Below, piece by piece: positions 31,099 through 33,409 of a DNA stretch of 64,000 bases; the first letter of the stretch is position 1; every line of letters begins with the position of its first letter. Source of the DNA: Escherichia coli (GTDB lineage Bacteria > Pseudomonadota > Gammaproteobacteria > Enterobacterales > Enterobacteriaceae); assembly GCF_024298765.1 (NCBI RefSeq), contig NZ_CP101210.1; one strand, written 5' to 3'. Below the pieces are notes generated by a model that worked only from the letters and a program-made list of their open reading frames with translations, made no database searches and was not told the DNA's origin. The translations under genes were made by a program, and so were the position numbers.

Positions 31099-32214
31099 GT
31101 GAACCGCCCCGTGTTTCCTGTTTATCATTTTCTGGTCAGTGCCGCGATTCTGGTATTCGTGGTGATTTTCTGGCGGACACACCATCGCGACCACCGTAAC
31201 TGGCTGGCTCTACGGCTATTCGTATTATGCTCTGTAAACCGTTGGCCATTGCGGATGGTTAAAGGAACAGTTGTGGGGACAACTGACACATTACGTGAAA
31301 TGCAGCGTTATGAACAACTGAGTCAGCACGGGGCTGACAACTGGAAAATCCAGCCGGGAGCACCGTTATATGATACGATTGTTATTGTCACTGGTGAGAA
31401 TGTGCGCAGGGATTATATGTCAGTGTATGGCTATCTCGTACCAACCACACCGTGGCTGAATACGGCACCCGGTTTATTTATTGACGATTATACCTTGACA
31501 GCCTCCAGTACAGTGTCTTCCCTGAGCCGGACACTGATTTATGACTATGAGCAGAACCCTGATTCCGGCAACAATGTGGTGGCGCTGGCAGCAAAAGCAG
31601 GATACAGCACATGGTGGATATCCAATCAAGGAAAACTGGGGGAGCATGACACACGCATCTCTGTTATTGCTTCTGATGCGGAGCATGCCACTTTCCTCAA
31701 GAAAGGCAGCTTCGCTTCCCGTAAAACAGATGACAAACTGTTGTTACAGGAAACAGAACGTGCGCTGGCGGATACATCCTCTCCGAAGATAATTTTCCTG
31801 CACATGATGGGTTCTCATCCAAATCCGTGTGACAGCCTTAACTCCTGGCCGAATAATTACCTGGAGCAGTATCCCCGAAAAATTGCCTGTTACCTCGCCA
31901 GCATCAGTAAACTGGATAACTTTCTTGGCCAGCTTGATGGTATCCTTCGCCGGTACTCACATCATTTCGCCATGCTTTACTTTTCTGGCCTTGGGCTGTC
32001 GGTCAGCGACAGTGCCAATCCTGTTCATCATTATGGTCATGTGCAGGGAGGCTACAGTGTGCCACTGATTATTACCGCCAGTGACATAACGTCTCATCAG
32101 CCCGTCAGTAGAAAAATCAGTGCCCGTCATTTCGCAGGTATTTTTCAGTGGATGAACGGTATTTGTACTGAAAATATACCGCCATTCAATCCGCTGACAG
32201 ACGAAGATAATTAA
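31099..32214 (+). CDS. sulfatase-like (alkaline phosphatase superfamily) membrane-anchored hydrolase/transferase, possibly N-terminally truncated
   Basis: GTG start with AGGAG RBS; one N-terminal TM then motifs IVIVTGENVRRDYMSVYGY and YSTWWISNQG...HD resembling phosphoethanolamine-transferase catalytic domains; IS5 abuts the stop codon. Confidence 0.5.
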   Translation: MNRPVFPVYHFLVSAAILVFVVIFWRTHHRDHRNWLALRLFVLCSVNRWPLRMVKGTVVGTTDTLREMQRYEQLSQHGADNWKIQPGAPLYDTIVIVTGENVRRDYMSVYGYLVPTTPWLNTAPGLFIDDYTLTASSTVSSLSRTLIYDYEQNPDSGNNVVALAAKAGYSTWWISNQGKLGEHDTRISVIASDAEHATFLKKGSFASRKTDDKLLLQETERALADTSSPKIIFLHMMGSHPNPCDSLNSWPNNYLEQYPRKIACYLASISKLDNFLGQLDGILRRYSHHFAMLYFSGLGLSVSDSANPVHHYGHVQGGYSVPLIITASDITSHQPVSRKISARHFAGIFQWMNGICTENIPPFNPLTDEDN

Positions 32215-33409
32215 GGAAGGTGCGAATAAGCGGGGAAATTCTTCTCGGCTGACTCAGTCATTTCATTTCTTCATGTTTGAGCCGATTTTTTCTCCCGTAA
32301 ATGCCTTGAATCAGCCTATTTAGACCGTTTCTTCGCCATTTAAGGCGTTATCCCCAGTTTTTAGTGAGATCTCTCCCACTGACGTATCATTTGGTCCACC
32401 CGAAACAGGTTGGCCAGGGTGAATAACATCGCCAGTTGGTTATCGTTTTTCAGCAGCCCCTTGTATCTGGCTTTCACGAAGCCGAACTGCCGCTTGATGA
32501 TGCGAAACGGGTGCTCTACCTTGGCACGGATGCTGGCTTTCATGTATTCGATGTTGATGGCCGTTTTGTTCTTGCGCGGATGCTGCTTCAAGGTTTTTAC
32601 CTTGCCGGGACGCTCGGCGATCAGCCAGTCCACATCCACCTCGGCCAGCTCCTCGCGCTGTGGCGCTCCTTGGTAGCCGGCATCGGCTGAGACAAATTGC
32701 TCCTCTCCATGAAGCAGATTACCCAGCTGATTGAGGTCATGCTCGTTGGCCGCGGTGGTGACCAGGCTGTGGGTCAGGCCACTCTTGGCATCGACACCAA
32801 TGTGGGCCTTCATGCCAAAGTGCCACTGATTGCCTTTCTTGGTCTGATGCATCTCCGGATCGCGTTGCTGCTCTTTGTTCTTGGTAGAGCTGGGTGCCTC
32901 AATGATGGTGGCATCCACCAAAGTGCCTTGGGTCATCATGACGCCTGCTTCGGCCAGCCAGCGATTGATGGTCTTGAACAATTGACGGGCCAGTTGATGC
33001 TGCTCGAGCAGGTGGCGGAAATTCATGATGGTGGTGCGATCCGGCAGGGCGCTATCCAGGGATAATCGGGCAAACAGGCGCATGGAGGCGATTTCGTACA
33101 GGGCATCTTCCATGGCACCGTCGCTCAGGTTGTACCAATGCTGCATGCAGTGAATACGCAGCATGGTCTCCAGCGGATAGGGCCGTCGGCCATTGCCCGC
33201 CTTGGGATAAAACGGCTCGATGACAGCGGTCATATTCTGCCATGGCAGAATCTGCTCCATGCGGGAGAGGAAAATCTCTTTTCGGGTCTGACGGCGCTTA
33301 GTGCTGAATTCACTATCGGCGAAGGTGAGTTGATGGCTCATGATGTCCCTCTGGGATGCGCTCCGGATGAATATGATGATCTCATATCAGGAACTTGTTC
33401 GCACCTTCC
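32215..33409 (-). mobile_element. IS5: IS5 insertion sequence, 1195 bp
   Basis: Terminal repeats GGAAGGTGCGAATAAG (32215-) and CTTGTTCGCACCTTCC (-33409); 326-aa transposase inside; 4-bp flanks TTAA vs CTAG. Confidence 0.9.
32361..33341 (-). CDS. insH: IS5 transposase InsH
   Basis: 326-aa ORF matching IS5 InsH as recalled. Confidence 0.9.

Follow-up and report, generated by a model that had tools for sequence, protein, structure and literature searches.

Introduction

A solitary copy of an insertion sequence (IS) whose two flanks do not match is the signature of recombination between two copies or of intramolecular transposition. Such a copy, an element of the IS5 type, lies directly behind the stop codon of a sulfatase-like gene in a stretch of 64,000 nucleotides from Escherichia coli (contig NZ_CP101210.1 of assembly GCF_024298765.1), which was analysed over its full length and is called the window throughout; coordinates refer to the window unless another record is named. 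IS5 duplicates the target 5'-YTAR-3' (CTAA, TTAG, CTAG or TTAA; PMC5009759), and 98 deletions by recombination between IS copies were recorded in mutation-accumulation lines of E. coli (Lee et al., 2016; PMC5009759). The copy in the window resembles IS5/ISKpn26 and the IS-IS joints described in that work in its length of 1195 bp, its 16-bp terminal inverted repeats, a DDE transposase scoring above the NCBIfam cut-off and two flanks that both fit the YTAR target, whereas it lacks the 4-bp direct duplication, and insertions at its two sites are absent from all 5,426 complete E. coli genomes that were searched.

For the gene in front of the element, two kinds of relatives allow a comparison. The pseudogene yjgX of E. 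coli K-12 (b4575), which is part of the leuX-associated element KpLE2/PR-Y, has in common with it a missing 5' end, the replacement of Asp-His by Gly-Leu and a TAA nonsense codon. K-12 yjgX differs in being additionally damaged by a frameshift and a Trp-to-stop change, in being followed by IS2 instead of IS5 and preceded by IS4, and in the location of the module, which lies at leuX in K-12 but in a selC island in the nearest relative of the window. Intact paralogues of 500 amino acids (e.g. WP_072644945.1, encoded beside tia) are 92% identical in nucleotides and 90% in amino acids over the retained part and have the same sulfatase-fold catalytic domain, but the window copy lacks their first ~104 residues, their Asp-His metal ligands and their last 30 codons. 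The nearest solved structure belongs to EptC/CptA and is the catalytic domain of EptC (5zzu, E 8e-18 with the paralogue as query).

Here we present evidence that the 1195-bp IS5-type element at 32215-33409 is a rearrangement joint inside a mosaic genomic island, a reading to which we assign a probability of about 0.8, and that the sulfatase-like gene is the orthologue of K-12 yjgX.

Results

The IS5 copy joins two island segments

The element starts with the left inverted repeat GGAAGGTGCGAATAAG at 32215-32230 and ends with the right inverted repeat at 33394-33409, the reverse complement GGAAGGTGCGAACAAG. With these 16-bp terminal inverted repeats (GGAAGGTGCGAAYAAG) and its length it has the ~1.2-kb format of the IS5 family, and the repeats were matched at only two places in the window, both of them ends of this element, against 0.05 matches expected by chance. 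An intact open reading frame (ORF) of 326 amino acids on the minus strand (32361-33341) encodes an IS5-family DDE transposase (NCBIfam transpos_IS5_4, E 7e-110, 366.8 bits against a cut-off of 140). Over its whole length the element is 99.4-99.8% identical to RefSeq copies labelled 'IS5-like element ISKpn26' and 96% identical to the IS5 of K-12.

A first-pass annotation, made from the letters of the window, had placed the left terminus of IS5 immediately after the TAA at 32212-32214, and reading of the sequence confirmed this, the last A of the codon being the base directly before the element. Its second statement, that the 4-bp flanks TTAA and CTAG do not constitute a target duplication, was borne out as well, and the two flanks belong to different loci. 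The window reads GATAATTAA before and CTAGTGGTT after the element; the IS5-free left locus reads GATAATTAA|CCTGTTATGG, and the uninterrupted right locus reads AGAGCAGAG|CTAGTGGTTAAAG (positions 7990-8015 of comparison record L003). The direct YTAR duplication that marks a simple insertion is absent, and since the flanks differ and stem from different loci, the present context of the element is the product of a rearrangement and not of a simple insertion, which leaves the identity of the element unaffected.

On the left, the counterpart of window 1-32214 is the selC island of strain FY10, located between yicL and tRNA-Sec. From 11000 to 32214 the two are colinear and 99.98% identical, and 500-bp windows from ~3001 to 11689 are 99-100% identical to FY10. 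The outermost part is a mosaic: window 1-500 is 100% FY10-like and 91.7% identical to strain ECJXMCRH7, window 1001-3000 shares 100% identity with the left portion of the ECJXMCRH7 island and 84-95% with FY10, and from ~3001 the sequence is FY10-like again. This mosaic left end shows exchange between homologous island modules, and within window 1-3500 it looks like a conversion patch between modules of the CP4 type. After the TAA, FY10 continues with CCTGTTATGG and the remainder of an 84-bp pseudogene tail, followed by an integrase fragment, tia, an intact phosphoethanolamine-transferase paralogue of 500 amino acids, an integrase and tRNA-Sec (selC).

On the right, window 33410-64000 matches an island of ECJXMCRH7 on the cadC/pheU side. 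Identity of the segment that starts at 33410 to islands in strains 1223 and ECJXMCRH7 amounts to 99.8-100%, with 99.8% to 1223 over window 33410-42345 and with 99.993% and 100% to the ECJXMCRH7 island beside cadC over windows 33410-47026 and 52785-64000, respectively. In both strains, which are free of IS5 at this site, the CTAG is preceded by GCAGAG and a gene for a TIR-domain protein (L003 7133-7837), and in other E. coli the CTAG likewise lies between the TIR-domain gene and a YagK/YfjJ gene.

In none of the comparison genomes are the left and right segments contiguous, in support of the earlier suggestion that the non-matching flanks reflect an IS5-associated rearrangement. BLAST comparison found neither the TIR segment nor the segment downstream of yjgX anywhere in the 64-kb window. 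Since the flanks belong to different loci and both missing continuations are absent, IS5 forms the joint between two island segments, and the absence of the TIR-domain gene indicates that the rearrangement separated or removed this gene. At the joint, the second island segment replaces the region downstream of yjgX that relatives retain, from the pseudogene tail to the tRNA gene.

The stop codon predates IS5 and supplied its target

The first-pass annotation had further proposed that IS5 may have removed the native 3' end of the gene. This does not hold, because the TAA is found with identical surroundings in IS5-free genomes and in K-12 yjgX, because it corresponds to a GAA-to-TAA change relative to the paralogue, and because the Prokaryotic Genome Annotation Pipeline (PGAP) labels the IS5-free locus as a pseudogene as well. 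The intact paralogue reads GATAATGAACCCGTT at the position of the stop (in another excerpt GATAATGAACCC). Since IS5-free genomes carry the TAA in the uninterrupted left site, it is native and older than IS5, which thus did not create the stop. The comparison with uninterrupted loci consequently upheld one part of the first-pass interpretation, the rearrangement, in which two different loci are involved, and contradicted another, truncation of the gene by IS5, given that the stop and the loss of the N-terminus are both ancestral. IS5 leaves the stop in place, and together with the rearrangement it removed only the untranslated 84-bp tail and the genes downstream.

The position exactly at a stop codon is a consequence of target choice. 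Because IS5 duplicates YTAR, any TAA or TAG stop that is preceded by a pyrimidine is a potential IS5 site, and the G-to-T nonsense change from AATGAA to AATTAA generated TTAA, a YTAR site consisting of a T followed by the TAA. The position therefore has no functional meaning for the gene.

The sulfatase-like gene is a yjgX pseudogene

The ORF in front of IS5 contains a Pfam Sulfatase domain (PF00884, residues 93-352, E 5e-31) and thus a catalytic domain of the sulfatase fold, while its matches to models of CptA, EptA and MCR are partial, weak and far below cut-off. Together with its neighbours nanX, nanY, ythA and the yjgZ remnant it is 99.25% identical in nucleotides to K-12 yjgX over 2.4 kb, and this identity, the synteny and the Gly-Leu-Gly and TAA lesions that are common to both loci identify the gene as the orthologue of the K-12 pseudogene. 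At least 80% of the ORF is present in 2,326 of the 5,426 complete E. coli genomes, with 100% identity in many of them, and PGAP describes the IS5-free locus as a phosphoethanolamine transferase pseudogene with 'internal stop; incomplete; missing N-terminus'.

Three lesions distinguish the ORF from the intact paralogue of 500 amino acids that is encoded next to tia in strains 165 and FY10 and is 92% identical to it over window 31112-32211. In the DNA alignment, homology to the paralogue starts abruptly at ~31112, corresponding to codon 105 of the paralogue, so that the ORF is short of ~104 N-terminal codons, which include hydrophobic segments, and the GTG at 31099 is a fortuitous start. The absent codons comprise the first part of the EptA_B_N domain (PF08019), a domain that matches residues 44-172 of the paralogue and that the window ORF, unlike the paralogues, does not contain; the first-pass remark that the gene lacks an N-terminal domain with multiple transmembrane helices is thereby supported. 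The second lesion lies in the (Y/F)xSDHG motif, which contains Asp-His metal ligands: the window ORF reads YFSGLG, where the paralogues and the EptC structure 5zzu read YFSDHG, and K-12 yjgX is changed as well. The third is the GAA-to-TAA nonsense change at 32212-32214, which ends the frame 30 codons before the natural stop, the paralogue having GAA followed by 30 further codons.

These lesions leave no frame of the full length of ~470-520 amino acids that is seen in all of the divergent intact homologues from Salmonella, Erwinia, Pantoea, Enterobacter and Aquitalea (34-63% identity). The first-pass annotation had named an end-to-end match to a complete sulfatase with a single transmembrane segment as the observation that would speak against a truncated gene, and no such match was obtained. 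We also considered the ORF of 371 amino acids as a genuine short member of the family with a single transmembrane segment and rejected this idea, as the matches of 371 amino acids were only copies of the same pseudogene ORF. The dN/dS ratio of 0.20 relative to the intact paralogue mostly reflects divergence before inactivation and is uninformative on present function. Because IS5-free genomes and K-12 have the same TAA and the same Gly-Leu change, the lesions are older than IS5, and the gene at 31099-32214 is a long-dead fragment.

In strain 165, intact phosphoethanolamine-transferase paralogues of 500 amino acids are encoded directly downstream of a Tia/Hek-type outer membrane protein gene in two places (L001 8024-10447 and L010 10152-12539), and a related outer membrane protein gene with 76% nucleotide identity to tia is present at window 56580-57383. 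The two genes may form a recurring two-gene island cassette.

Other features of the window

The features around the joint are listed in Table 1. The group II intron fragment upstream of the 5' breakpoint of yjgX was matched by RF02003 over the full length of the model (67.2 bits against a gathering score of 49, E 2e-13) and is unrelated to the complete intron at ~23.5-25.7 kb. The coordinates of K-12 yjgZ map to window 30301-30630 on the minus strand, and the ORF annotated in K-12 as 'uncharacterized protein YjgZ' appears to be the C-terminal remnant of an IS66 transposase that runs antisense into the intron fragment.

Table 1. Coordinates of the features at and around the IS5 joint in the window.
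Feature	Position	Strand	Evidence
IS66-family transposase C-terminal remnant	30301..30530	-	PGAP on identical stretch (L001 5302-5531): 'transposase domain-containing protein, frameshifted, incomplete'
Fragment of a group II intron (D1-D4), preceding the yjgX 5' breakpoint	30558..30697	+	Rfam RF02003
ORF of the yjgX-type phosphoethanolamine-transferase pseudogene	31099..32214	+	Pfam Sulfatase, identity to K-12 yjgX, paralogue alignment
GGC CTT (Gly-Leu) for GAC CAT (Asp-His) of the YFSDHG metal-binding motif	31987..31992	+	Codon comparison with intact paralogue
Left flank TTAA, YTAR site; 32212-32214 is the TAA nonsense codon	32211..32214		Sequence reading, IS5-free locus, paralogue
IS5-family insertion sequence, ISKpn26 type, 1195 bp	32215..33409	-	Terminal repeats, transposase profile, whole-element identity
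Right flank CTAG, YTAR site; first four bases of the second island segment	33410..33413		Sequence reading, uninterrupted locus
AT-rich unannotated spacer (28-37% GC), then YagK/YfjJ-domain gene (34824-35390)	33410..35390	+	BLAST, annotations, composition profile

Farther left, at 23460-26188 (minus strand), an IS3-family element, recognizable by an ALIL frameshift pseudoknot (26073-26188), harbours an apparently complete group II intron with the ltrA gene (23550-25073) and a match to Rfam Intron_gpII (23460-23546). A type I restriction-modification set occupies 10646-17147 (M, S and R genes according to the annotation of FY10), and the ORF of the R subunit (13911-17147) matched hsdR below the cut-off, with 166.7 against 284.55 bits. 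The right segment contains truncated type VI secretion genes tssF/tssG (37515-40015) beside IS66 remnants, and a chromosomal extended-spectrum β-lactamase unit at 58042-62440 on the minus strand. This unit consists of an IS903-type transposase remnant (58042-58680), blaCTX-M (58715-59590; NCBIfam blaCTX-M, 620.7 bits) and an ISEcp1 transposase gene (61178-62440), with an IS10/ISVsa5 copy (59835-61043) between the latter two. The stretch is 100% identical in ECJXMCRH7, where the gene is annotated as CTX-M-14.

Discussion

The best explanation for the hybrid flanks is an IS5-mediated rearrangement, either by recombination of two IS5 copies at two YTAR sites or by intramolecular transposition. 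Each junction coincides exactly with the border of a YTAR that is already there in the uninterrupted loci, which suggests that both ends were made by the IS5 transposase. When IS5 arrived, yjgX had long been dead, as a result of the 5' truncation, the change of Asp-His to Gly-Leu and the GAA-to-TAA mutation. In the most likely history, two IS5 copies would have inserted independently, one at each YTAR site and each with its own 4-bp duplication, and homologous recombination between them would have produced a single hybrid copy with TTAA on one side and CTAG on the other. Alternatively, a single IS5 copy may have attacked the second site by intramolecular transposition, with the same product.

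Several observations weigh against a rearrangement joint. In the 5,426 complete genomes no IS5 was present at either site, so that a parental simple insertion with matching duplication was not seen, and in searches of the same genomes with the whole joint and with each junction, no genome covered at least 80% of any query. Degenerate-pattern scans of genome and metagenome contigs gave 0 matches for the IS5 end followed by the right flank of the window or by the reciprocal or parental flank (TTAACCTGTTATGG). The window contains a single IS5, no tRNA genes and, in the comparisons made, no core-gene matches. From these 64 kb alone, deletion, inversion, replacement by an imported segment and misassembly are indistinguishable, and a wrong assembly join across a 1.2-kb repeat would look identical. 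An artefact of this kind, in which two ordinary IS5 insertions, one at the TTAA of yjgX and one at the CTAG, were present and the wrong flanks were joined over the repeat, would account for flanks that end exactly at YTAR sites, as expected from two simple insertions, and for junctions that are unique among the complete genomes. IS5-type copies are moreover numerous in many E. coli genomes, where they occupy up to 43 places per genome. However, the sequence itself carries no error signal, and IS-mediated rearrangements of this type are common in real genomes (PMC5009759), so that we regard an assembly error as improbable. The joint appears to be private to the source lineage.

If the joint is real, it could have arisen at a single locus, by a deletion adjacent to IS5 between YTAR sites of one island or by import of an FY10-like segment into an ECJXMCRH7-like island. 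Strain 165 carries both modules in one island and in the same orientation, FY10-like and ECJXMCRH7-like tracts alternate in the left part of the window, as after recombination of imported DNA, and the right part, with its CTX-M unit, is 100% identical to ECJXMCRH7. On the other hand, strain 165, the only examined genome with both modules in one island, has the CTAG upstream of yjgX and thus the order opposite to the window, so that the window cannot have come from this arrangement by a simple deletion; the 100% FY10-like sequence at window 1-500, with 91.7% identity to ECJXMCRH7, does not fit a single left crossover, and ECJXMCRH7 has no IS5 at the CTAG. A single-locus event is therefore a tentative option, at somewhat less than even odds. 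The order in strain 165 also led us to consider a tandem duplication or a circular unit, which was rejected because the 32 kb left of the TAA do not contain the CTAG segment. As a special case of the IS5-mediated rearrangement preferred above, the joint might be one end of an inversion of ~0.5 Mb that spans oriC and arose between inverted IS5 copies in a selC-borne and a pheU-borne island. In FY10 the left segment is located at selC and reads from yicL to selC, the decreasing direction of K-12, whereas the right segment of ECJXMCRH7 lies beside cadC in the increasing direction of K-12 (the orientation of the record was cross-checked at its selC locus). Were both islands of the source genome at these loci, they would be mutually inverted, and joining them head to tail as in the window would require an inversion, not a deletion. 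The tract at window 1001-3000, 100% ECJXMCRH7-like within FY10-like sequence, also suggests that both islands were once in one cell. Yet the modules occupy different tRNA loci depending on the strain (leuX in K-12 and SWHEFF_68; beside glcA in strain 165, a locus that we take to be pheV), and in ECJXMCRH7, the strain identical to the window on the right side, the left-side island is not at selC, where a different island resides. The reciprocal junction expected from such a rearrangement, ...AAAAGAGCAGAGCTAG-IS5-TTAACCTGTTATGGTTTTT..., was not seen in the contig scans either, and we consider the inversion unlikely, although less so than an assembly error. If it did take place, two genomic islands swapped their distal halves in an E. 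coli lineage that carries CTX-M-14, and the TIR-domain gene was separated from its former neighbours.

Every component of the locus is of an already known kind, namely a yjgX pseudogene of a KpLE2-type island module, an ISKpn26/IS5 element and an IS copy with hybrid flanks. Nothing points to a new mechanism or function, and the locus is an instance of routine mobile-element scarring whose meaning beyond bookkeeping is small. The sulfatase-like gene at 31099-32214 should be annotated as a yjgX pseudogene and not as a truncated functional enzyme, and the junction is useful as a private marker for strain typing and, in assembly quality control, as a spot at which to exclude misassembly. A minor curiosity is that an old nonsense mutation supplied the YTAR site later used by IS5. 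The IS5 copy itself marks a breakpoint that is specific to the strain, and the highly mosaic island around it also contains a chromosomal blaCTX-M unit.

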